Assembly: GCF_020745735.1 (NCBI RefSeq)
Contig: NC_083409.1
Location: forward strand, 36,414,048-36,478,047
Length of the DNA: 64,000 nt
Reading direction: 5' to 3'
DNA from: Hemiscyllium ocellatum
Taxonomy: Eukaryota
In this document: positions 23,871-48,500 of the stretch, piece after piece
Layout of the letters: each line of letters begins with the position of its first letter
How positions within the stretch are numbered: position 1 is the first letter of the stretch
Notes under the pieces: model-generated
Databases searched by the model: none
What the model saw: only the letters and a program-made list of their open reading frames with translations
Told to the model about the DNA's origin: nothing
Translations under genes and position numbers: made by a program

Positions 23871-25276
23871 TGTAGTGTCTCGGAAACATTGGAATACCAT
23901 GTTTGTGGTTGAGCACTGCACCTGGCAGAATGACATATTGGTTTTGAAAAAAAGTGCAGCAAATATTTACCAAAATGTTTCTTGAATTTAGAGAATTCAG
24001 TTTGAAAGAGATGCTGTGTAAGCCTAGCTTGAGTTCTATTGAGTATAAAAATGTTGAAGGGAGATCTGATCAAAGTCATTAAGATGTTAAAAGCATTTGA
24101 TGATGTCAATACGGAGAAACTGCAGGTAAACAGCTGTGAACTGTTGGCATATAACTCAACTAGTTAAAACTCTAGGAGAGAGTGAGAACTGCAGATGCTG
24201 AAAAGTCAGGGTTGAAAAGGGTGGTGCTGGAAATGTACAGCAGGTCAGGCAGCATCGGAGGAGCAGGAAAGTTGATATTTCGGGCATAAGCCCTTCATCA
24301 GGAATGTTAGGGGTGGGGAAGGGAGCTGAGAGATAAAGAGGGTGGGGTAGGATTTGGAGGAAGGTAGCTGGAAAGGTGATAGATAGATGAGAGATGGGGT
24401 AGAAGGTTGGGGGAGTGGCTAATGGTGATAGGTTGGAGTGGAGGGTTGAGCAGATAGGTGAGAAGAAAGATGGACAGGTAGGACAGTTCAAGAGGGCAAT
24501 GCCGAGTTGGAGTGTTGGATCTTGGGATAAGGTGGGGGAAAGGGCGATGAGGAAACTGGTGAAATTGACATTGATGCCGTGTGGGTCGAGGGTCCAAAGT
24601 CAGAGAGTGAGGTGTTCTTCCTACGAGCATCCGGTGGCTAGGATTTGGCAGTGCAGGGGGCCCAGGACTTGCATGTTTTTGGTGGAGTGAGAGGGGGAGT
24701 TGAAGTGGTCAGCCACAGGATGGTGTGTGAGACCTGGAGATGTTCCCTGAAACGCTCAGTGAGTTGGTGTCCTGTCTTCCCTATGTAGAGGAGACCACAT
24801 CAAGAGCAATGGACATTGTAGATGAGGTGGGTGGAAGTGCAGAAACATTTCTGCCGGATGTGAAAAGGTCCTTTGGGGCCTTTGATGGAGGTGAGATGGG
24901 AGGTATGGGTGCAGGATTTACACCTCTTGCAGCAGCAAGGGACGGTGCTGGGTAGGTTGGTGGGGGGGCATGGACCTAATGTGAAAATCATGGAGGGAAT
25001 GGTCTCTGCGGAACATAGATGGTGATGGGGAGAGTAAGAAAGGATAATGCACTGTATCTGGAGATTGGTGGCGTAGAAGGTGAGGACCTGGGGAGGGGAG
25101 GACGGGGAGGGTTCTATCCTTGGTGCAATTGAAGAGTTCAACGATGAAGGAAGAGGAAGTGGAGGAAATGCACTGGAGTGCATTGTTGATCACATGGCAT
25201 GGGAAATTACGGTCCTTGACATAGGCCATCTGGGATGTCCTGGAGCAGAATTGCTCCTCCTGTGAACAAATATGGC

Positions 25277-33192: not shown

Positions 33193-36100
33193 GGTCAATG
33201 AATTAACGGCCTAAATCATCATGAATGAATATGATTTAGTAGACATTACAGGATGGCCATGACTGGGAGTTAAATACCCAGAGGTATCAGACTATTTGGA
33301 AGGACAGACAGGAAGGTAAGGGAGGTGGTGTAGCTCTGATATTCAAGGATGTCATCAGGATGGTGCTGAAAGGTGTTATAGGTTCTGTGGAGAATAAGGT
33401 TGAATTCATTTGGGTAGAAATTAAGAAATTCTAAGAAGAAAATGTCGCTGATGGGTGTAGTCTATAGGCCACCAAATAACATCACATGGGATGGGGGATT
33501 TTAATCTACACGTCGATTGGTCGAACCAGCTCAGTCAGGGTAGCCTTGTGGAGGAGTTTTGAGTGTATTCATGAAGGTTTTTTGAACAGTGTGTAATGGA
33601 ATCAATGAAGGAGCAAACTATCCTAGATCTGGTCCTGTGTAATGAGACAGGAATAATTAATGACCCCATAGTTAGGGATCCTCTGGGAAGGAGTGATCAC
33701 AGTATGGTTGAATTTAGAATACAAATGGAAAGTGAGAAGATAAAATCCAATACCAGGGTCCTGTGCTTAAATAAGGGAGACTAGAGTAGAATGAAGGAGG
33801 ACTTGGCTAAAGTAGGCTGGAAACAAAGATTTTATGGTGGGACGGTTGATGAACAGCGGAGGGCTTTCAAAGCAATTTTTCAAAGTGCTCAACTAAAAGT
33901 ATATTCCACTGAAGAGCAAGGACTGTAAGAAAAGGGGTAATCTGCCGTGGGTGTCCAAGGAAATAAGGGAGGCTATTGCAATTGAAAGAGAAGGCATGCA
34001 AAATGGTCAAGAACAGCAGGAAATCAGAAGATTAGAAAAACTTTAAACGTCAACAGAAAGCCATAAAAAGAGCTATAAAGAAAAGTAAGTTAGAACATGA
34101 GAAAAAGCTAGCACAGAATATAAAGACAGATAGCAACAGTCTCTATTTATATATAAAATTAAAAAGAATGGCTATAGTAAACCTTGGTCCTTTAGAGAGT
34201 GAGATGGGGCATTTAGTTATGGGATATGATGAAATGGCTGAGGCATTGAATAGGTGTTTTGTATCGGTCTTCACAGTGGAGGATACTAATAAAATGCCTG
34301 TTATTGACAAAGAGACGAAGGTAGGTGAGGATCTGGAAACAATCATTATCACAGAAGAGGTAGTGTTGGGTGAGCAAAGGATAGGCAAGTCTCCTTGCCC
34401 TGATGGAATGTATTCCAGGGTACTAAAAGCAATGGCAGGAGAAAAAGCAAGTGCACTTGTGGTAATTTTCCAAGATTTGCTGGACTCTGGGGCAGTTCCA
34501 GCAGATTAGAAAACAGAAATGTGATGTCATTGTTTAAAACGGGAGTTAGACAAAAGATGTGGAATTGTAGACCAGTTTGCTTAACCTCTGTAATGGGGAA
34601 GATGCTGGAGTCTTTTATCAAAGAAGAAATAGTAAGGCATCTAAGTATAAATAGTCTCGTTGGGCAGACACAGCAAAGGTTCATGCGTCACAAATCTTTT
34701 GGCATTTTATGAGGATATTGCAAACAAGGTGGACAACGGAGACCCAGTAAATGTAGTGAACCTAGATTTCCAAAAGGCCTTCAAGTTGCTGCACAAGAAG
34801 ATAAAGATGCACGGCATTATGGGTAAAATATTAGAAAGGTGAGAGGACTGGTTGACTAACAGGAAGCAAGAAGTATCATAGAATCCCTACAGTGTGGAAA
34901 CAGGCTCTTTGACTCAACAAGTCCACACTGACCCTTCGAAGAGTAACCCATCCAGACCCATTCCCCTACCATACATTTACTCCTAACAAATGCACGTAAC
35001 CTACACATCCCTGAACACTGTGGTCAATTTAGCACAGCCAATTCACCTAAGCTGCACATCTTTGGATAGTGAGAGGAAACCCACACAGACATGGGAGAAC
35101 GTGCAACTCCACATAGACAGTTGCCCGGGGCAGGAATTGAACCCAGGTCCCTGACGCTGTGAGGCAGCTGTGCTAACACTGAGACACCGTGCTGCCCAGA
35201 GTGAGGATAAATGGCTGCTATTCTGGTTGGCAATCAGAAACTAGTGGTGTGCTTCAGGGATCAGTGTTGGGATTGCAATTATTCACAATTTATATCGATG
35301 ATGTGGAGTTGGCTATGTGTAGTGTGTCAAAGTTTGCAGATGACACTAAGACGAGTGGCAGAGCAAAAGACTGAAACTTGGCAGAGGAACATAGATACTT
35401 TTAAGTGAGTAGGCAAAGGTCTGGCAGATGGAATACAATGTTAATAAATGTGAAGTAATCCATTTTGGTAGAAGTAACAGTAAAAGGGATTATTACTTAA
35501 ATGGTAAAAAGTTGCAGCATACTGCTATGTAGAGGGACCTGGGTGTCCTTGTGTGTGAATTGCAGAAGTTTGGTCTGCAGATACAAGTAATTTGGAAGGC
35601 AAATGGAATTTTGACCATCATTGCTAAAGGGATTGAGTTTAAAAACAGGAAGGTTATGTTGCAGCTTTACAGTGTGCTGGTGAGGCCACACCTGGAGCAC
35701 TGTGTGCAGTTTTGGTGTCCCTTATTTGAGAAAGGATGTACTGGCACTGGAGAGGGTGTAGAGGAGGTTCACTGGGTTGATTCCAGAGATGAGGGGTTGG
35801 TTTATGAGGACATACCGAGTAGACTGGGATTATGTTCATTAGGATTCAGAAGAATGAGGAGGGATCTTACAGAAACATGTAAAATTATGAAGGGAATAGA
35901 TAAGATTGAAGTAGAGGATGTTTCCACTGGCGGGTGAAACTAGGACAACAGGGCATAGCTTCAAAATTAGGGGAAACAGATTTTGGACTGAATTGAGAAG
36001 GAACATTTTCACCCAGAGGGTTGTAAATCTATGGAATTCCTTGCTCAGTGAAGTAGTTGACGTTATTTCAGTAAACTTTCTTAAAGCTAAGATAGATATT

Positions 36101-36250: not shown

Positions 36251-36591
36251 ATCAGGTGAAAAGTGAGGACTGCAGGTGCTGGGGAGTCAGAGTCGAGAGT
36301 GTGGCGCTGGAAAAGCATTGCAGATCAGGCAGCATCCGAGGTGCAGGAGAATCGGCATTCTGGGCATAAGCCTTTCATCAGGAATGCTCATTCATGCCTC
36401 ACAAATTTTGTAGGTAAAAGGCTTGTGTTCATATGGAAAAAAAGCATGCAGACAAATGTTATTATTCCATATTGGGTTGAGCGGAAGAAAAAAGCTAGCT
36501 TTAAAGCAACTTGTATTCATTTGGTATGTTTCACATAAGAAACCCGTGGTACCTTGCGGGAGATCAATGAAATGCAATTTGGGATAGCCAC

Positions 36592-37252
36592 TGTCGTGGA
36601 GAAAATATGGAGAATCACCAAGATTCGCAGAGAGTTCTTCAAGAAGTAGGTCTTTGCAAACAAAAAACCGTGACACTGAGAAAGCAGATCTTCAAATGCC
36701 CCCAAACCTCAGGGTCCATGGATTTTTATATCTTTTTTTTCATATTTCTGTTAGCTTATCAGCATGTCCAACTGTATTAATCAAAGTACCTCACTCTAGC
36801 TACACAATAAACAAGTTATGATATTTCCCATTATCTCTTTAGAATAACATTAAGTAGAATGTATAACTAATGTTACAGTTAGATATTTATTAACACCTCT
36901 GCTACAGTGATCTTCCATTCCAGACTAACCTGTCATGATAGATATTTAGCTATTCCATCGATTACAATAGTCTCCTGTCTCAAGCTGACTCTTCTTTTAA
37001 TTAGATATTTTAATGTCATGTCCCAAATATTTATGGTCCCAATCCTGTCATAATGACACTTAACAGGGAAATTAGCTCTATTAACTGTTATCTCCTCTCA
37101 CCATAGTGATCTTTCAGCCTTAACCTTACTTTGCTAATTGGCCTAAGAGCATTCCACTATTGTTATCCCATCTTGCCTTCCACAGATCACAGATTGCCAG
37201 TGATCTTCATGCTTTAACCCTCCCCATGCTTTCATGCTCTTTATTTTCCATA
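36592..37252 (-). repeat. ERV 3' LTR (661 bp)
   Basis: Direct repeat of 44024-44686; ends CA on the minus strand; TATAAAA at about 36724-36730; follows the PPT. Confidence 0.95.
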
Positions 37253-37265
37253 TTCCCCCCTTTTT
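37253..37265 (-). promoter_or_regulatory. Polypurine tract
   Basis: AAAAAGGGGGGAA directly upstream of the 3' LTR. Confidence 0.9.
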
Positions 37266-37549
37266 AAGATCTACCGGACTCACCTAGAGAAAGAAGTCAA
37301 TAAGCTCAGCCCCTTCCGTGCCCAGTACAAACAATGTAGGTCCCAACACTGACTAAATAATTTTCAGAGTCTTAGACCTAAAGGTTTCTTCCTCCATTCC
37401 TGGGGTCCCTTGGGCCAAAAGCCTGTTCTCCAATAACCAGGACAGGGTAAAAGACCCAAGATCATTCACAATCTAGGACCCACGCATTCTTCAGAAGTAT
37501 CATTGACGTCCCCACATGGACATATTCCTTGCACTGTGGCGGTTGTCAG

Positions 37550-39080
37550 ATCATCTTGGCAAGCGGTGGGGTTCCGTCAGAGGAGTAAGCACTTCTTAGG
37601 GTAGCTGAAATGGCCACAAGTTGCCGTGTAGTGATGCAAACTAAAAAGGACTTAATAAAAGGTAAAGCGCAACAAAAGACGAAGGTGACAACAAGTAAAA
37701 CCACACCTATAATAAGACCAATCTTGACAAACCATGCTCCCCAAGTCCCTAATATTATTCAAGCAAAAGCCTGATGACCAAGCCCGCACTGTCTTTTAAC
37801 TCCTGTCTTAGATTCTTTCGTTTTTCCATTGCTTCAGTAAAAGTTTCCTCAGGGCTAGTGTTGTTAGGTATAAAGGTACAGCAATGCTCTCCCAAACATC
37901 TCACAAACCCTGCCTTTTTCTGCCAGTATCCAATCTAAAGCCTGTCTGTTTTGCCATGTCATTTTGGTAGTAGCATCCAATTGTTCTCCCAAGGCCACGA
38001 GGGCATCATCAGTATAATTGATAAATCTCTGCTGGTTGTAATAAATGTAAATAATCCATTCAGCATTCTTACTAAGCCCTATCACTGGGATGGAGCCTCC
38101 CAGCCCGCGGCAATCTCATAGCGGGCCTTAAACTCATTAGGAATAGTCTCTTGGCTGTCTTATGCTATCAATCTGAATTGTTGGATCAGGGATTTAGCAT
38201 TGCTTAGTTCAGTGCAAAGCTGACTGTGACGTAGCATCAAGTTACACGTGTGCCGCTGTAACTACCTCATGTAGGAGCATTACGCGGGCACAGCTGCCAC
38301 TCTTTTCTTACCACACAGCCACCAGGTATCTGCTAGTGGGACGCATTGAGAATTTAAAACAGCCCCAGATGTGGTGTCCACCTTGAGTTCAATCGTATTC
38401 CTGTAAAGACCCTTAAAATAGCCGACTGGTGTGGAGCCATTTCGCTTAAAGCATTCAAAACTCAACCCTTCCCGTATCCTGAAAGCAGCCATGGGGAATG
38501 TGTAATAAGTCTTACAGCTGGACCATGGGGTACTATAGCCACAGCACCATTGGAGTTACTGCCTGCCCACATCATCCTGCTGATAGAACATAAAGGCCTG
38601 AAGTAGGAGGCACTAAAAAGGGCAATGGGATTGCATGCAAGTTGATGCATCATCCACGTTAACAGGTCAGCTAGAGTGCTGCAAACGCCATTGAGTACAC
38701 GTGATCGAGTTATAAGGCATAAGGACAACAGAGTATGAGGGGGTTGCCTTAGTACACAAGAAACAGTCCTGTCTAGCCATCATTACAGCCGTGTAGTTTG
38801 CCCATTGATCCCAGTGATTGTCACAGGCGCAAACCCATGTTAGGGCAGCAAGGTCTGCACTCCTAAAATGTCTTTGCCTCCCAGCCTGAGTGACCCTGGC
38901 ATTACCAGTCCCGTCTGCCAGGTTAATTTTCTCCAAGTCTGAGTATGCAGGCCTGGCATTAGATGGGGGGGTATCAGGGCATTCTCCATGTCTTCCCCAT
39001 CCCCACTCCCAGGAGAACTATGCTCCACAGCTCCATCACAATCATTTCTGGAATGATCAGTATCCCCAAGAACTTCACAT
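37550..39080 (-). pseudogene. env: ERV env (gamma-type, frameshifted)
   Basis: SU CxxC (QDCFLC, ORF 38667-38936); ADTWWLCG; TM heptad and ISD QNRQALDWILAEKGRVC; CX6CC (C-EMFGEH-CC) across a frameshift; TM anchor WFVKIGLIIGVVLLVVTFVFCC. Confidence 0.9.
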
Positions 39081-39189
39081 CTACCTTGTGCGGAACCTTG
39101 CTGAGGGGTACCAACCTTTTTTTGGCCTGCCCATGTCCAGGTTCCTCAGCCTCAGCTCCAGTTACCTCAGTGTTAGAGTTAGTTTGTGC

Positions 39190-40912
39190 TGGTGAGAGAG
39201 CTTTAGCACAGTGTTTAAGGTGGTACCATAAGTTTCGCCCTTCCACTTGGGTGGCGATAGGTAATGCCTTAGTCACTACGAAAGGTCCCTCTCTCCTCTG
39301 CTCATTCCGATGTCTTTGAAAAACCCACACGTACACCCAATCCCCGAGCTTAATAGGTCCTTCCACGTTGACAGGTGTCGATTCCCTTTGTGTTTCCTGC
39401 AGGTGGATAGTCTCATGTATCATAGATAGCTGCTGCATATATTGTTTAAGTTCTAAGCTTAACCGCTCCAAGCTAGGGCCTTTGTATGGGCCTCTCCACT
39501 GGCACAGGTCTACCTGTGAGCATCTCATGCGGTGTAAGATTGGTCATGCAATTAGTCTGCATGCAATAACTCATTAATGCCAGCAGTAGCGCATCAACCC
39601 AATTAAGGCTGGTGCTTGTGCAGATCTTGTTTAATTTGACTTTCAATATCCTATTAATTCTTTCCACCATACCCTGTGACTGGGAATGATACATGCACCC
39701 AAACCTCTGCTTGATTCTCAAACACTGCAACACCAATTTAGTTACTTCCTGAATGAAGGCAGACCCATTGTTTGATCTAATTTCCGACGATATACCAAAC
39801 CCTGGGATAACTTCATTTGTCAGAAATGTCACGACTGTCCCAGCTCCTGGTTTCAACCTTATTTCCACTGGGCTAGCTGATTTCACTCTCCCCACATCTG
39901 TATCGTGCTGTGACCACAAAGTGGCTGATAATGCATCCAATTGCTCATTACTATATTGATCATCTTCCTCCACTGTCAGTGGCACGCTCCACTGGGGTGT
40001 TACCTTGACTTCCTTTGGATTCCTTGTCAATTTGCAGCAGGCTGGGATTTTAATACAGCTGCTATCCCTGGATTCCCAAACCCCTGTCGTGAGCATATGT
40101 CATTCCCTAACTGTTTCTACATGCATGGCCATAGGTCCTACGTATTCAGATTGATATCCCTTATTTACCAGTAAGGTTACATGTGGTGCAGTGCCTGGTA
40201 CTCTATACCACTTTTCCAGGAACACATTTCTCTCTATTTGCAGGATCACTCCCTGCTTCCCTAATACTATTGCTTCACTTCTCAAATGTTGTGGAGCAGT
40301 GACTTCCTGCTGCCACTGCCTCTCAAATACCTCATCCTGAGACTCATCAAATATCACTGTACAGTGCCGCTCAGACTTAGGTGGTCTTGCTTTAGTCAAC
40401 ATCGTCAACACTTCTGCTTCCCACATTTCCCAAATATCTTGATTATCACTTGCTATATCCCCTAGCCAATAAACATTAACATCTTTAACTTCTTGCATCA
40501 CCAATTTTGTATTGGCCTTTTCTATGACCAAGCCCTGCTGTGTACACTCCAATCTTACCTCTAACTGTAGTAAAGCATCCCTACCTAATAAGTTAATTGG
40601 CATCTCTTTAGACACTAATATTGACAGAAATCTAATCTAATCTAAAACTATCTCCCTACCCATTGATGATCTTACTGGAGCTGTAAATTGAGTTAACTGT
40701 GATTTCCCTGAGAACCCTACAGTTTTAACAAATTTGCTTGACATGGGAAGGTGAGAGGCATACCGCCGCTGTATACAAGTGTATATAGCTTCAGTATCTA
40801 TCATCACCGCTATCTGTTGCCCTTGTATATTAACTTGTAATACTGTTTTTTGATCAGCCTCCCATGCTACTACAGGGTAGTGCCCCTTCCCACCCAGGTT
40901 CTCAGGGAATTC
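39190..40912 (-). pseudogene. pol: ERV pro-pol: protease, 2H-like domain, RT N-terminal stub fused to integrase core and C-terminus
   Basis: VMIDTEA (DTG decayed) and PINLLGRD protease motifs; HCTV/HVTL; LWSQHDTDVG..LKPGA; IPGFGISSEIRSNNGSAF, QSQGMVERIN, GDWVYV, EGPF integrase motifs. Confidence 0.92.
40100..40480 (-). other. 2H phosphoesterase (CNPase/LigT-like) domain within pol
   Basis: Two HxT+hydrophobic motifs 61 aa apart: HCTV (40355-40366) and PHVTL (His codon 40181-40183), followed by a G..S..VG.M segment. Confidence 0.75.
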
Positions 40913-42847
40913 CTAGCACATCCCATATGGATTAACAGGTCCTGCTGGGCCTGTAAGTGCCGTCTAGGCCCGCTGTAGGACAGAGGGGGCCTGGTCCAAT
41001 AAGGGCAATTCCTCCTAAAGTGGCCTGATTGATGGTATCCCCAGCACATCATTTCTGATCCCCCTTGAACCTGATTATTTATATGTACCTTAGTCCCCCA
41101 TTCCTACGTCCCTGTCCTTGGGAACCCCAGTTCTGTTTAGGCTGTTGTTTAAATCTGCTCTGTCCTGGATACATCACCCGCGGGAAAGCTTCTCTAAAAA
41201 CCCCCATTGCTGGCATGGGACTTTCTGGCCCCTGTCTGGCTACCTGATAGGACCCACCTTGCGCTGGCACTTGGTTCACGCCAGTGTTGATTACTGTGTC
41301 AGTTCTTACTTGCAACACCTTTTTAGCCTTCTCTTTTTCTTTCTTTTTAAGCTCTTCGAGCTGCATTTGTACCAGCTTCCTTTGCACCTCCTCCTGCTGT
41401 TCAGACAGTTTCTCTTTGTCTTTTCGAAACCTTACAGCTGCATGATCTCGAAATTCTCTAAATAGCTCATTGATAATGTCAGACCCACCACTTCCTCCAG
41501 TCTTGACCTGACTTGGGAGGGTATTGCCTCAATAATGGAATTTCGGAATATTGTGGTCAGCAGCTGATTAGTGTCTATGTCATGCTCTATTTCCAGCCTC
41601 CATTTTTTAAACTCCAAGTAGGCAGCCAGATTTTCACTTTCGCCCAGTGGATCCCCTCTCAGAACCTGGGGGTCCATTTTGGTTCTCTTAAAGCCTGCCG
41701 TACATTCAGTCTCACTCGATCAAACCCGACCCCATCAATCATTGGATTGCCTGCCACATTTTTCAAACCGGTTCGGACCATTATTTCCTTTAACCTCATG
41801 AGCCCTACCAACCTCACCAGCAGTGCCTTCAAGTCTCCTATAGCCAGCAATCGCCCTGTGGTTTCATCTTCAAAAGCCTTGATCCACTTTCCCCTCCCTC
41901 ACGTAAACTGGGCAGTGCATTCTTCCGCTCTTCCAGATCCTGAGTTTCCCAAGGAATGTATTGTGGGTTTTTCCCCTCTTTTATAAGGAGCGATAGCATC
42001 CTTCCCTGTTGGCCCTTTTTCCTTTTACTGACACTCCTCAATAATTCCCCCTCAGGCTCTGAGTTCGGTGCTATTTCTAATTCCTCCCATTCTTTAGGTA
42101 TTAAGACCTTTTTCTTTCCTGGTATCTTATCATCCCTTTCTGCTTGCTCTGTGTCACCTTCACTGCTTTTCTCTTCAGCCCTTCTTTTGTATTGCAATGA
42201 GTATTCCTCAATTGCTTTTTATTCCCTTAGCCCACACAGTACACTAATCCCATGTTTCAGCTTTTCTTGCTCTTGTTGAATAGTTTCTATTTGCTCTTGC
42301 CTGTCCCCTTTCTCTCTTTCTCTTCTTTCCCTCAGTTAATTTTTGTCTTCCGCACTTCCATCCCATTCGAACTGTCCCTCTATTTCTACTGTTCCCTTTA
42401 TTACTGGACACTGTTTCTCAATGCCTCTTCATTCAAGTAGGGAGGAGGTCTATTCAGCTCCTCCACATCTGGGTATAGAGGGAGGCTGATTCCTGCTTTT
42501 CTGTTTCCCGTTAACTGCTCAGCTTGTTCTTTGCAGCTTTCCTAGTCACCACAGGTGCCTGACAAGCTACCTTCAGTTCCTCACCCTCCTCCCTGAAAAG
42601 TTTCAATGTTTCCAACTCCTGATCCCTCTTTTGGTTTCTATTTTCAGATTTATCTTTCGGCCTATAGATCTTAATAATCATTCCATCTCATTGCACATAT
42701 ATATATATATCAAAGGTACCTTCTTTTGACCATTTAATCAATAAATCCAGAGTTCACTTTTCCCATTTGTCAGAAATTTTTACAATATCATTTCTTGCCA
42801 CTGGAAATTTCTTACTCAGTATCTCCAAGTGCAGTCCCTTTATCCAT
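40913..42847 (-). pseudogene. gag: ERV gag (frameshifted)
   Basis: Probable ATG at 42847; WSKEGTFD matrix-like motif; LYPD and PPPY (42437-42448) late domains; coiled coil; decayed knuckle CWGYHQSGHFRRNC; TAG at 40913-40915 in frame with the protease. Confidence 0.85.
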
Positions 42848-43494
42848 CCTAACATATATTTCAGTCCAGCTAATGTATTATCTTTGCTCTCATAAATCAC
42901 TTCTTCATACCATTCAAGTCCGGTAGGGCTTTGTCAACTGTATAAGCAATCCCTAACTTTATAACTTGCAATTGCCCCTTACCAATCTACCAATTCCTAA
43001 ACGTCCTCAATTGCAGCTAGTTAATACAAACAACCTATTCTCATTCATTCAGCCTAAACCAACCTAACACTGCACCTTCACTAAGGTTTCTTGAAAAATT
43101 TCTCTCTCAAAAAAAAACTGTCTTAAATTCTTATAGTACAAAATAAAATCAAAATACCCCAGGCTCTCAAGCTTCAGGGAAACAAAACACAAACATCTAA
43201 CCACCAACAAACAATTATGCACACAAATCAGATCACAATGGTTAAACTATAAAGTCATACACACACTCAGAGCCTAGCTGCAAACAGCCAGGAGCTCGGC
43301 TATAAATCTCTCTCTCTCTCACTCACTCACAGCCAGAGCCTTACTTAAACAGACCCTTTGTTCATTTCCAAAAGTCTAATTATCCTACAGGCTTTGTCTA
43401 AAACATTCAACAGTCTAGTAATACTTTAACACTATGACTATTCTCTGCTACTTTACGTTTAACCATCCACTACCAATCTGCCAGCTTTCTAAAC

Positions 43495-43590
43495 ATTCCT
43501 GAAGAAGGGCTCATGCCCAAAACGTCGATTCTCCTTCTCCTTGGATGCTGCCTGACCTGCTACGCTTTTCCAGCAACACATTTTCAGCTC
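43495..43590 (+). mobile_element. Short Penelope family C terminal fragment inserted in the ERV leader
   Basis: attcctgaagaagggctcatgcccaaaacgtcga...gatgctgcctgacctgc matches copies at 24175-24306, 36262-36386, 50674-50764 and 52678-52805. Confidence 0.8.
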
Positions 43591-44001
43591 GGCTTTCCAA
43601 ACAGGTCTATCAGCGCTTTCTGTAAAACAATTTCCCCTTATTTATTCTATCTATCAGGTCTTATATTCACCACATGTAATTTTACTCAGACAATTACTAC
43701 ATTCTATTCTTACTCACCCCTTACCCCACTGCATAGTTTTCTTGACCAATTCTCCACGTCTCCTTCAACTGCAATTTACCCCTCGCCTTTGGATATTGGA
43801 TCAGTGACACCCTCCGGCAGGTTCCCACACCTCCAAGTCCCCAAGGACTACTCCAAGCCTGCAGAATATAGTCTGAATTCACAGCAAAAATGCTAACCTT
43901 TTTTTGTTGGGTACCCTGATTCTGTCAGTCTCAGGAGTGCTCCCGGTGGACCGAGAAGCACCCTGTTACTGCCGCCCTCTGTCCAGGTGGGTCTCTTTTC
44001 C

Positions 44002-44019
44002 ACCCTGCTCGCAGTGCCA
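44002..44019 (-). promoter_or_regulatory. Primer-binding site, tRNA-Ser type
   Basis: TGGCACTGCGAGCAGGGT starts 4 nt past the 5' LTR; about 16/18 match to the complement of the vertebrate tRNA-Ser(UGA) 3' end, from memory. Confidence 0.8.
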
Positions 44020-44023
44020 AATT

Positions 44024-44686
44024 TATCATGGGGAAAATGTAGAGAATCGCCAGGAGACGCAGAGAGTTCTTCAAGAAGTAGATCATTTATTTGCAAACAA
44101 AAAACCGTGACGCTGAGAAAGCAGATTCCTGAATTCCCCCGAACCTATGAGTCCATGGATTTTTATAATTTTTTTATCATGTTTCTGTTAGCTTACCAGC
44201 ATATCCAACTATATTAATCGAAGTACCTCACTCCAGCTACACAATAAACCAGTGATGTTAATTTCCATTATCTCTTATATTCGACTTAATGTTATTCTAA
44301 TGTCAAGGTTAGATATTTATTATCACCTCTGCTGCAGTGATCTTCCATTCCAGACTAACCTGTCATGATAGATATTTAGCTATTCCATCGATTACAATAG
44401 TCTCCTGTCTCAAGCTGACTCTACTAACTATTAATTAGATATTTTAATGTCATGTCCCAAATACCTATGGTCCCAATCCTGTCATAATGACACTTAACAG
44501 GGAAATTAGCTCTACTAACTGTTATCTCATCTCACCATAGTGACCTTTCAGCCTTAACCTTACTCTGCTAATTGGCCTAAGAGCATTCCACTATTGTTAT
44601 CCCATCTTGCCTTCCACAGATCACAGATTGCCAGTGATCTTCATGCTTTAACCCTCCCCATGCTTTCATGCTCTTTATTTTCCTTA
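44024..44686 (-). repeat. ERV 5' LTR (663 bp)
   Basis: Direct repeat of 36592-37252; TATA at about 44160-44166; AATAAA at 44086-44091 (minus strand). Confidence 0.95.
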
Positions 44687-45239
44687 CCACCTAGGAGATA
44701 TTGGGAAAGATGACCAAAAGCTTGCTCTATTAAAGCTTTACAGAGTATCTTAAAGCACGAAAGTGAAAGTTTGGGAGAGAACAGAGTAGGCGTCATCAGT
44801 ACACAAACTGGTTTCCCAGGTCACAACATGTAGGTGGTTGATGTCAGTCATAGGCATGCTAGTACAAGTATTGCAGCAAACATCTGTAGAATGTGAAACT
44901 TTCAAATGACATGAACAACTTCCCACGAAGGTCAGGGCAGTCTGGAGTTTCACTTCAGTCCCTTGGGAATTTTCTGAAGCCAGCAATTACAGCAGAGAAC
45001 AGCTTTCTCACAGGCCTGCCTGACAACCAGGACAGTGTCCCAGAAAAAAGTGACCTCAACCTTCACACCCTTATTTGAGACTGTGCTCCTTCTTTCTAGA
45101 CAAGGGACATATCCTTCCTTTGCACACTCTGTTGATCCCTGTATGAATTTTGAATGTTTTAGTGAGATCATCTCTCATTCTTGCAAGCTCCAGAGAATAC
45201 AAGTAAATTTTAGACAGTTAGGGAAAGGAGACCACATAC

Positions 45240-45559: not shown

Positions 45560-48500
45560 AAGTGAATAATTAAAATAGAGATGCTGGGCCAGGCGATGTA
45601 TTGTACCCACATGATGTGGGAGTTGGTGGGTTCCATTGTGGTTCAGAGTGACCATATCTATAGCAAGTGTTGGTTGCTTAGAGTTTATGAGCTAGAGTCT
45701 GAGCTTCGAACACTCCGACACATCAGGGAGCGGGAAAGTTACTGGGACATTATGTTTTGGGGTGCGGTCACACCCCTTAGATTAATTACCTCAAATCCAG
45801 TGAGTGGTCAGGGGCAGAATGGTGTGTCCATGAACGAGGTAAGTCGAGGAATCCCATGAGGTAGTGCTGAAGGATCCTTACCCCTTGACATTGCCTAGCA
45901 GGTTTGAGATTCTCACTGCCTGTGTGGATGAAAATGGGCACTGTAGGAAGGATGAACAAACTGGCCATAGCATCGTGGTACAGGGAGCCATTCAAGAGCG
46001 GAGGGAAAAGAGAAATGTAGTTGCGATCGGGAACAGTGGTCAGGGGAATGCACACTGTTCCCTGTGGCCAAGATTGAGAGGCGTGAAGGCTGTGTTGCCT
46101 GCCTGGTGCTTGGGATCAGGATACCTCATCTGGGCTACAGAGGAACTTGGAGTGGGTGGGGAAAGATTTAGTTATTCTCATCCACGTAGATGCTAATGGT
46201 AAATTAGAAAGAGGAATGAGGTTCTGCTTAGGGAATGCAAGCAGCTAGGGGCTAAACCAAGAAGCAGAACCAAAAAGTAATAATCATCAGGTTACTACCT
46301 GAGCTATGAGCAAATTGGCTTGGGGCCAACAACTTGGATAAGCAAGTAGCTCAGAGATTAGTGTGGGAGAAACGGGTTTGAATTCATGGTACCGGAGAAG
46401 GAGGGAGCCGTTCTAATGGGACCGGAGTCCTGATGAATTGCACAACTCGGGCAGTGGATAGGACTTTAAATAGCAGGGAGGGGTTCAGTTGTGTGGAACA
46501 TAATGGAAAGAGTTCACGCTAGGGAGGTCTCAGCTGAAGTTAAAGTTACCAGACCAGGACAGAGAGTTTGGAAAGGTTGAGAAATTTAACGTCAGGCACT
46601 GCAGAAAAGGGACGACAATGAGAAGGAGTCAATCAATGCAGGACTGAAGGTGTTGTACTTAAACACACATAGTATACAAAACAAGGTAAGTGAGCATGTA
46701 TCACAGATTGAAATTGGCAGGTACAATGGTGTGGGTATCAGAGAGAAATCGCTGCAAGGAAATGAGGGCTGGGAACTAAATATCCGTGGATACACATCCT
46801 ATCGAAAGGACAGGCAGATGCGCGGGGGTGGGGGGGTCAGGATGGCCTTTTTGGTACGAAATGAAATTAAAACAATAGCAAGAAGTGATATGAAGTTGAA
46901 AAGCTTAGAATCTGTGTGGGTAGAGTTGAGGTACCTCAAAGGATAAAAGACCATGACGGGAGTTGTGTACAGGCCTCCTAGCAGTAATCAGGATGTGGGG
47001 AAGAAAATAACTCAGGAGATGGAAAAGGCACGTAAGAAAGGCACTATTAGAATAATCATGGGGAACTTCAATATGTGGGTGACCTAGGAAAATCAGTTTG
47101 GTAGTGGATCTCAAGGAAAGGGATTCGTGAAATGTCTACGAGATGGATTTTTGGAGCATCTTGTGATGGAGCCCATTAGGGAACGTGCAATTCTCGAATT
47201 GGTGAAGTGTAATGAGGCAGACTTAATTAGGGAGCTGAAGGTGAATGAACCCATAGGGGGCAGTGACCATTCTATAATATGACATGAAGGCTGAGAGATA
47301 GAATCAGCTATAACAGTATTATAATTGAGTAAAGGTCACTATAAAGACATGAGGCAGGAGCTGACCAGAGTTGATTGGAGGTGAGCCTAGCAGGGAAGAC
47401 ATTAGAGCAGCAATGGTAAAGATTTCTGGGGGAGTTTGGGATCCACAGCAGAAATTCATCCAAAGGAAGAAAAAATCATTAATGGGTGGATGAGGCAACC
47501 ATGGCTGATAAGGGAAGTCAGGGACAGCATAAAAGCCAAAGAAAAAACATGAGAAAAATGTAGTAAAGGTGAGTGGGAAACCTTTCAAAACCAGCAGAGA
47601 ATAACTAAAAAAGCAATAAGGGAGGAGATGATGAAATATGAGAGTAAGTCAGCTGGTAATATAAAAGTAGATTGCATGAATTGTTTTTAGATATCTATTA
47701 AGTGAGAAGCAAGAGTGGACATTGGCCCATTTGAAAATGAGGTGGGAGAACAAGTAACAAAAAGCAAAGCAATGGCAGAGGAGCTAAATCGGCACTTTGC
47801 GTCAGTTGTCAAAGTGGAAGACATCAGCAGCGTATCAGATCTTCAGGAGAGTCAGGAGGCAGAGGTGAGTGTAGTTGGCATCACTAAGGAGAAACTGTTG
47901 GGGAAGCTGAAAAGTCTGAAGATGAATAAATCACTCAGAGCAGATGGACTACACACCAAAGTTCTGAAGGAAATTGCTGAGGAGATTGCAGGGGCATTGA
48001 TGGTGATCATTCAGGAATTGCTGGGATCAGGGAGGGCCCGAGAGGGCTGGAAAGTAGCTAATACAACACCCTCGTTTAAGAAGAGAGGGAGGCAGAAGAC
48101 CAGAAGCTATAGGCCAATTAGCCTGACTTCAGTCATCGGTAGAATTTGAGTCCATTATTAAGGGGGAGATTGCAGAGTACTTTGGAAGTGCATGGTAAAA
48201 TAGGGTGGAGTCAGCTGGCTTTGTCAAGAGGAGGTCATGCCTGACACATCTGTTAGAATTCGTTGGGAAGGTAATGAGCAAGTTAGACAAATGAGAGGTA
48301 GTAGATATGATTATTTGGATTTCCAGAAGGCATTAAACAAGGTACTGTGCAGAGACTCGGACCTGAAGACACAGCCTCAGAGTGAAGAAAAGGCCCTTTA
48401 GGACTGACTGAGGACTTTAGGGACAAATTACTGCAGATGGTAGGATCTGTACTGAAAATAACAAATGCTGGAGATCACATTGGGTCAGACGGCATCCATG

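Follow-up and report, generated by a model that had tools for sequence, protein, structure and literature searches.

A predicted 2H domain of the CNPase branch in the Pol of fish epsilon-like retroviruses, and its fossil copy in a shark genome

We analyzed a 64-kb stretch of the genome of the shark Hemiscyllium ocellatum (NC_083409.1; "the window"), which contains an 8.1-kb provirus on its minus strand. Between the protease and the reverse transcriptase (RT), the pol frame of this provirus has an insert that, according to structural modeling, is a 2H-fold domain whose nearest solved fold is CNPase. Domains of this kind are a known feature of the Pol of fish epsilon-like retroviruses. We found that the domain has been under selection in the viral lineage, and that the copy in the window is a non-functional fossil. 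Our best explanation, which we hold as a whole with moderate confidence, is that the domain is a 2',3'-cyclic phosphate hydrolase that benefits these viruses in the ways proposed below.

A 2H insert between protease and RT

The pol frame runs from PINLLGRD (40600–40577), at the end of the protease, through HCTV (40366–40355) and PHVTL (40186–40172) to LWSQHDTDVG (39919–39890), at the start of RT. These landmarks, and a TGA stop at 40100–40102, lie where the initial annotation of this DNA had placed them. Its spacing of 61 residues between the two catalytic histidines was also right, and its "about 200 extra codons" come to 220 if counted between the GRD motif and the beginning of RT. By chance, such a motif pair would be rare: when the 174-residue insert was shuffled 100,000 times, it appeared in 85 cases. 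Across all six frames of the window, no other stop-free pair like it occurs. The domain had been drawn at 40100–40480; it is present there, but it continues past the lower coordinate to about 39990, as the strands of the model reach residue 170 and CNPase aligns over residues 5–170. The TGA therefore falls inside the domain.

Structural placement in the CNPase branch

Membership in the 2H phosphoesterase superfamily, which the initial annotation had claimed, holds up: we found both H-x-(T/S)-hydrophobic motifs and, in the model, the 2H fold. The fold and the two motifs are common to NS2 (MHV), NS4b (MERS), the C-terminal domain (CTD) of rotavirus VP3, AKAP7, Acb1, and the avipox phosphodiesterase (PDE). 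CNPase is the nearest solved fold, clearly above other 2H groups. Next is the CPD of fungal tRNA ligase (Trl1; PF08302), which together with tRNA_lig_CPD-like proteins of phages and giant viruses is the second structural family and gives the top feature match (0.97). The retroviral genome offers the domain no kinase or ligase partner. We also considered the 2',5'-oligoadenylate (2-5A) phosphodiesterase group as the closest kin, but AKAP7, NS2, and VP3 are not the nearest structures.

Two traits of the CNPase branch are present: a helix after the second motif (residues 121–133), equivalent to helix 7, and a putative base-stacking aromatic residue five positions after the first histidine, which is tyrosine or phenylalanine in 59 of 63 relatives (the glycine register is kept in 56 of 63). 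Both are described as CNPase features in PMC4643303 (in part; here and below, this marks a source of which a portion was available to us). The fold also extends to walleye epidermal hyperplasia virus 1 and walleye dermal sarcoma virus (WDSV): in BFVD, walleye virus proteins match the shark domain with E = 2.6e-10 and a TM-score of 0.76, and with E = 9.8e-08 and a TM-score of 0.70. (The BFVD walleye virus entries are tagged "Envelope polyprotein" despite lengths of 1,159–1,317 residues.)

Several results weigh against this placement. Identity to the catalytic domain of vertebrate CNPase or fish RICH (PF05881) is just 11–15%, the retroviral domain is shorter, and so is the spacing of its histidines. 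A comparison with an exon of shark CNP by hhalign gave a probability of 1.1% (E = 0.048). The Pfam CNPase model matched 1 of 55 family members (E = 0.084) and did not match the window's domain, and a sequence search of the PDB found no match. In place of CNPase's Val321, which bounds the base pocket on its other side, 44 of 63 relatives have lysine or arginine; because of this replacement and the shorter histidine spacing, the pocket differs from that of CNPase. Since the domain also scores below the Pfam cut-off, and Pol has no N-terminal kinase-like domain, it is not CNPase proper. Rather, the models suggest that it works like CNPase without being a CNPase orthologue. The shark has a single CNP gene, on contig C110.

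Conservation, selection, and inheritance with Pol

A profile built from 11 natural copies matched 72 proteins among 1.84 billion representatives. The hosts of ten matches that we looked up included a stingray, a seadragon, a tilapia, a zebrafish cluster, a pipefish, and a catfish. A wider profile gave 29 long proteins, mostly full-length teleost Pol. Both motifs, 61–68 residues apart, were present in 63 distinct proteins among the 105 that we read; in 45 of these, the end of a protease lies just before the domain or the start of RT just after it, as in the shark element, and the remaining 18 entries are 100–436 residues long. The window's domain is 24–38% identical to those of bony fish and further relatives, with 21% at the low end. 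Some retroviral Pol pieces are misnamed in the databases (P0002, P0062, and P0086; the labels include Siah1 ligase in stingray, RAD9B in tilapia, and ferret next to tilapia).

As the initial annotation's proposal implied, the HxT motifs are conserved in these related Pol proteins. Among the relatives that cover each motif, the first has histidine in 55 of 59 and threonine in 57 of 59, and the second has histidine in 55 of 58 and threonine or serine in 56 of 58. The four catalytic columns are 93–97% conserved, versus a median of 24.5%. This bears on whether the domain might be mainly non-catalytic, serving Gag-Pol as a spacer or acting as a decoy for host CNP, a protein that blocks assembly by lentiviruses and binds their Gag. 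Host CNP does inhibit HIV assembly via Gag (cited in PMC5434554 and PMC7471995, both in part), and the shark has a CNP gene. However, the catalytic positions being among the most conserved points to catalysis, and CNP's N-terminal domain has no counterpart in the viral domain. We consider a non-catalytic role quite improbable.

To measure selection, we compared close copies with three divergent lineages (L036, L037, and L038) from the same genome. The ratio of nonsynonymous to synonymous rates (dN/dS) was 0.35–0.45 for the 2H domain, 0.36–0.38 for the protease, and 0.18–0.34 for the integrase. Bootstrap intervals stayed under 0.7. Neutral decay at a later stage also enters into these ratios, and the local pairwise alignments may trim divergent ends. 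The 2H domain was thus under selection in the viral lineage.

The domain's tree tracks the RT tree across 24 proteins that have both (Spearman correlation of 0.70, reached in 0 of 2,000 permutations; the two trees agree on 7 of 10 and 7 of 9 of their supported splits), and 2H distances are about twice RT distances. Because its tree follows that of RT, we infer that the domain was inherited with Pol and was not captured recently from shark CNP. No Pfam model covers the retroviral 2H domain in the family members that we scanned, which is why fish Pol proteins are routinely annotated without it.

Some teleost endogenous retroviruses (ERVs) encode macro domains (PMC4977317, in part), and ADP-ribose 1'',2''-cyclic phosphate is a possible substrate of 2H enzymes (PMC9503650, in part). 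The 2H domain might then open this compound together with a macro domain. Neither the eight long Pol proteins that we scanned nor the longer copy from the shark has a macro domain, and we give this idea very little credence.

The copy in the window is a fossil of an RT-less subfamily

In the window copy, gag, protease, integrase, and env are all disrupted by stops or frameshifts. Three-frame translation and reading of other copies confirmed alterations of the protease catalytic motif, of a catalytic position in the integrase, and of the Gag knuckle. RT is reduced to about 30 codons, after which the reading frame crosses, at 39842/39849, to the core of the integrase. A longer copy, itself broken, holds 2,616 more bases at this junction, with matches to RT and RNase H.

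The genome has at least 151 matches to the element (150 of 682 candidates were scored), and the deletion junction is common to 19 of the 30 best loci (L001–L030), including the window's. (The RT-less loci are L002–L004, L007, L010, L015–L018, L020, L023–L030, L035, L039, L042–L045, and L054.) This shared, in-frame deletion removes RT, RNase H, and the integrase N-terminus, and it is scattered over many contigs. A tree of 38 copies, from which three near-duplicate loci were dropped, is star-like, with RT-less and RT-bearing copies intermixed. Within this burst, dN/dS (weighted for transitions) was 0.88–1.07 for the 2H domain and 0.86–1.14 for the protease, which implies neutral decay after insertion. 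RT-less and RT-bearing copies share one star-like burst, and the RT-less ones decay neutrally; they were therefore copied in trans. Contigs C198 (with L035 and L044) and C116 have dozens of near-identical copies within a few megabases, which probably arose by segmental or tandem duplication after insertion.

That the 2H motifs are intact in the window copy while others are mutated had been offered as a telling contrast. Of 38 copies, 23 have an unchanged first motif and 30 have H-[VIL]-T as the second. The protease motif is covered by 32 copies and intact in 24 of them. Because the 2H motifs are kept no better than the protease motif, their survival in the window is uninformative and reflects chance, not selection. 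The same data speak against co-option of this copy by the shark as a phosphodiesterase gene. It does retain both motifs and 136 open codons, but there is a stop within the domain, the tree is star-like, and dN/dS among RT-less copies, including this one, is 0.88 (0.69–1.08). We see next to no chance of co-option.

Proposed function

In a replicating ancestor, the domain would have been produced solely by read-through of the amber stop at the end of gag, and hence at the level of Pol. This is because the TAG is kept in most copies that cover the site, including the distant L036–L038; class I retroviruses are known for read-through of the gag stop. We propose that the domain would be packaged alongside RT and the tRNA primer, and probably released by the viral protease. 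The two borders of the domain have about twice the frequency of Q-[MLV] words found inside it, which is a modest hint of such release.

With its two histidines and two Thr/Ser residues, and without a metal, the enzyme would convert 2',3'-cyclic phosphates, whether at RNA 3' ends or in 2',3'-cyclic nucleotide monophosphates (cNMPs), to 2'-phosphates. We consider this chemistry, which we base on the nearest fold, fairly likely. Cyclic-phosphate ends that host metal-independent RNases leave on the primer, the genome, or host RNA would be removed, which would take away substrates of RtcB and fragments that innate sensors detect. CNP hydrolyzes cyclic phosphates on RNA ends, opposes RtcB, and can substitute for the CPD of yeast Trl1 (PMC13247085, in part), and RNA fragments with cyclic phosphates activate several sensors (PMC8406329). 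This biological role, taken by itself, is the weakest step of our proposal, and we put it forward tentatively.

The initial annotation had suggested that the domain might heal 2',3'-cyclic phosphate ends of RNA or of the tRNA primer. That chemistry fits the nearest folds, CNPase and the fungal CPD, but simple "primer healing" is doubtful because a 2'-phosphate is not obviously a good primer end for RT. Other points also count against our proposal: in 42 of 48 relatives the domain carries a net acidic charge, which is no sign that it binds RNA strongly; the signal for protease cut sites is modest; and, to our knowledge, most retroviruses replicate without such a domain. Furthermore, 2H enzymes readily shift substrate (PMC11410667, in part).

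For this last reason, cleavage of cyclic dinucleotides retains some probability. The domain might break down 2'3'-cGAMP (cyclic GMP-AMP), either blunting the sensing of viral cDNA by cGAS-STING or clearing cGAMP from particles. Fish possess cGAS-STING, and retroviral DNA is a ligand of cGAS. Other viral 2H enzymes, pigeonpox PDE and Acb1, do cleave cyclic dinucleotides (PMC11410667, in part); the weaker BFVD matches include Acb1-labelled proteins (E of 0.008 and above, TM-score of 0.47 or less); and the pocket departs from CNPase at the Val321 position. Fold scores to the cGAMP PDEs (Acb1 and avipox) are low, although such scores do not decide the substrate. We think this activity unlikely.

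Cleavage of 2-5A to block RNase L, as by NS2, NS4b, VP3-CTD, and AKAP7, had also been suggested. Cartilaginous fish have a functional OAS–RNase L pair (PMC10400998, in part), and the H. ocellatum genome has OAS genes (11 exon matches on two contigs). The OAS genes form a cluster of about three units at 18.29–18.36 Mb of contig C59, with one more at 58.01 Mb of C2. However, according to the same portion of PMC10400998, ray-finned fish lost this pathway, and their retroviruses, which supply most of the relatives, keep the motifs. The anti-RNase L reading therefore fails as a role for the family, and we judge it very unlikely, though the shark's OAS genes leave room for a side activity on 2-5A in this species.

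Returning to cyclic-phosphate hydrolysis by a packaged enzyme, a broader possibility is that this Pol nuclease destroys an innate nucleotide signal: cGAMP, or the 2',3'-cyclic-phosphate RNA fragments or cNMPs that are read by TLR7/8 and RIG-I-like sensors. We find this possible but doubtful. If it is true, a CNPase-branch 2H enzyme has been kept across sharks, rays, and teleosts for immune evasion, and no retroviral enzyme would have been shown before it to destroy a signal of this type.

Features of the provirus

The element (Table 1) is an epsilon-like (class I) fish retrovirus, with the layout LTR-gag-(amber)-pro-pol-env-LTR (LTR, long terminal repeat), an MLV-type integrase C-terminus, and a Pol that is kin to class I elements of fish. 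It may belong to the genus Epsilonretrovirus in the strict sense; its primer, tRNA-Ser(UGA), differs from the tRNA-His of the walleye viruses, and our RT tree covers relatives other than WDSV and walleye epidermal hyperplasia virus. It also differs from its teleost and walleye kin in its host (a shark, with a stingray among the hosts of its relatives) and in that the window copy is dead and RT-less. The LTRs have 46 differences in 647 aligned bases (Kimura two-parameter distance of 0.075). The complement of the primer-binding site, as found in the copies, matches host genes, and ARAGORN identified tRNA-Ser(tga) at all three loci scanned.

Pfam gave no match to gag at E ≤ 0.001, so we assigned it from its position and its knuckle, which is CX2CX4HX4C in sister copies. 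Env also has no Pfam match, and its assignment is putative. The protease (RVP) is recognized in relatives.

Table 1. Features of the provirus, in coordinates of the window.
Feature	Position	Strand	Basis
5' LTR	44024..44686	-	paired with 36592–37252
3' LTR	36592..37252	-	paired with 44024–44686
Target-site duplication GTGG	44687..44690 (5' side); other copy 36588–36591	-	identical 4 bases flanking both LTR ends
Primer-binding site, complementary to tRNA-Ser(UGA)	44002..44019	-	ARAGORN on matching host genes
gag, with stops and frameshifts, an altered zinc knuckle, and an approximate start	40916..42950	-	three-frame translation; sister-copy knuckle
gag amber stop (TAG), in frame with pol, read-through type junction	40913..40915	-	comparison of copies
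Aspartic protease, catalytic motif altered, stop at 40637–40639	40514..40912	-	weak RVP match on C-terminal piece
Predicted 2H phosphodiesterase domain, CNPase branch, TGA inside	39989..40510	-	
First motif, H-C-T-V	40355..40366	-	conserved in relatives
Second motif, H-V-T-L	40172..40183	-	conserved in relatives
RT N-terminus stub, ends at deletion junction (8-base overlap 39842–39849)	39842..39931	-	RT-bearing copies break alignment here
Integrase remnant: part of core and frameshifted C-terminal domain	38977..39841	-	MLVIN_C E = 6.3e-08; rve_3 weak
Putative env remnant, broken, limits approximate	37500..38960	-	position and hydrophobic membrane-like stretch
Polypurine tract	37253..37265	-	purine run immediately before 3' LTR

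A short interspersed repeat is inserted in the leader (43495–43600) and recurs at 24216, 36277, 50674, and 52678. Sister copies are also interrupted by such repeats (L032 within RT and L033 after the 2H domain). The flanks of the provirus (34036–35937 and 45843–48149) have fragments resembling open reading frames of CR1-type long interspersed elements (LINEs).

Prior knowledge and implications

The initial annotation regarded the domain as an undescribed system, but it was already in reviews. A 2016 review states that some epsilon-like elements of ray-finned fish encode CNPase or macro domains (PMC4977317, citing Basta 2009), and a 2022 survey states that fish retroviruses and WDSV carry 2H domains (PMC9503650, citing Mazumder 2002; both in part). 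Its statement that no functional test is in print agrees with our search, which found no title reporting one, with most subscription papers outside its coverage. By word search, the enzymology papers PMC11410667 and PMC8406329 do not mention retroviruses, and a survey of zebrafish ERVs contains neither "phospho" nor "CNP"; a paper on elephant shark ERVs makes no mention of the domain in its first 10,000 characters (of 14,366). The domain is real and had been put in the right superfamily. What is new here is a further shark host, the evidence for selection and co-inheritance, the argument against RNase L, the RT-less subfamily, and the placement, by predicted structure, in the CNPase branch.

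The shark copy contributes host range and an RT-less parasitic subfamily, and no new system. For the family, the question is narrowed to the CNPase branch, away from the 2-5A group, for a domain that occurs in hosts without RNase L. The domain is small, predicted to be well folded, and easily tested with natural sequences. No retroviral gene is more conserved than Pol. An additional enzyme that has been kept in it from sharks to teleosts, as constrained as the protease, must serve replication in some way.
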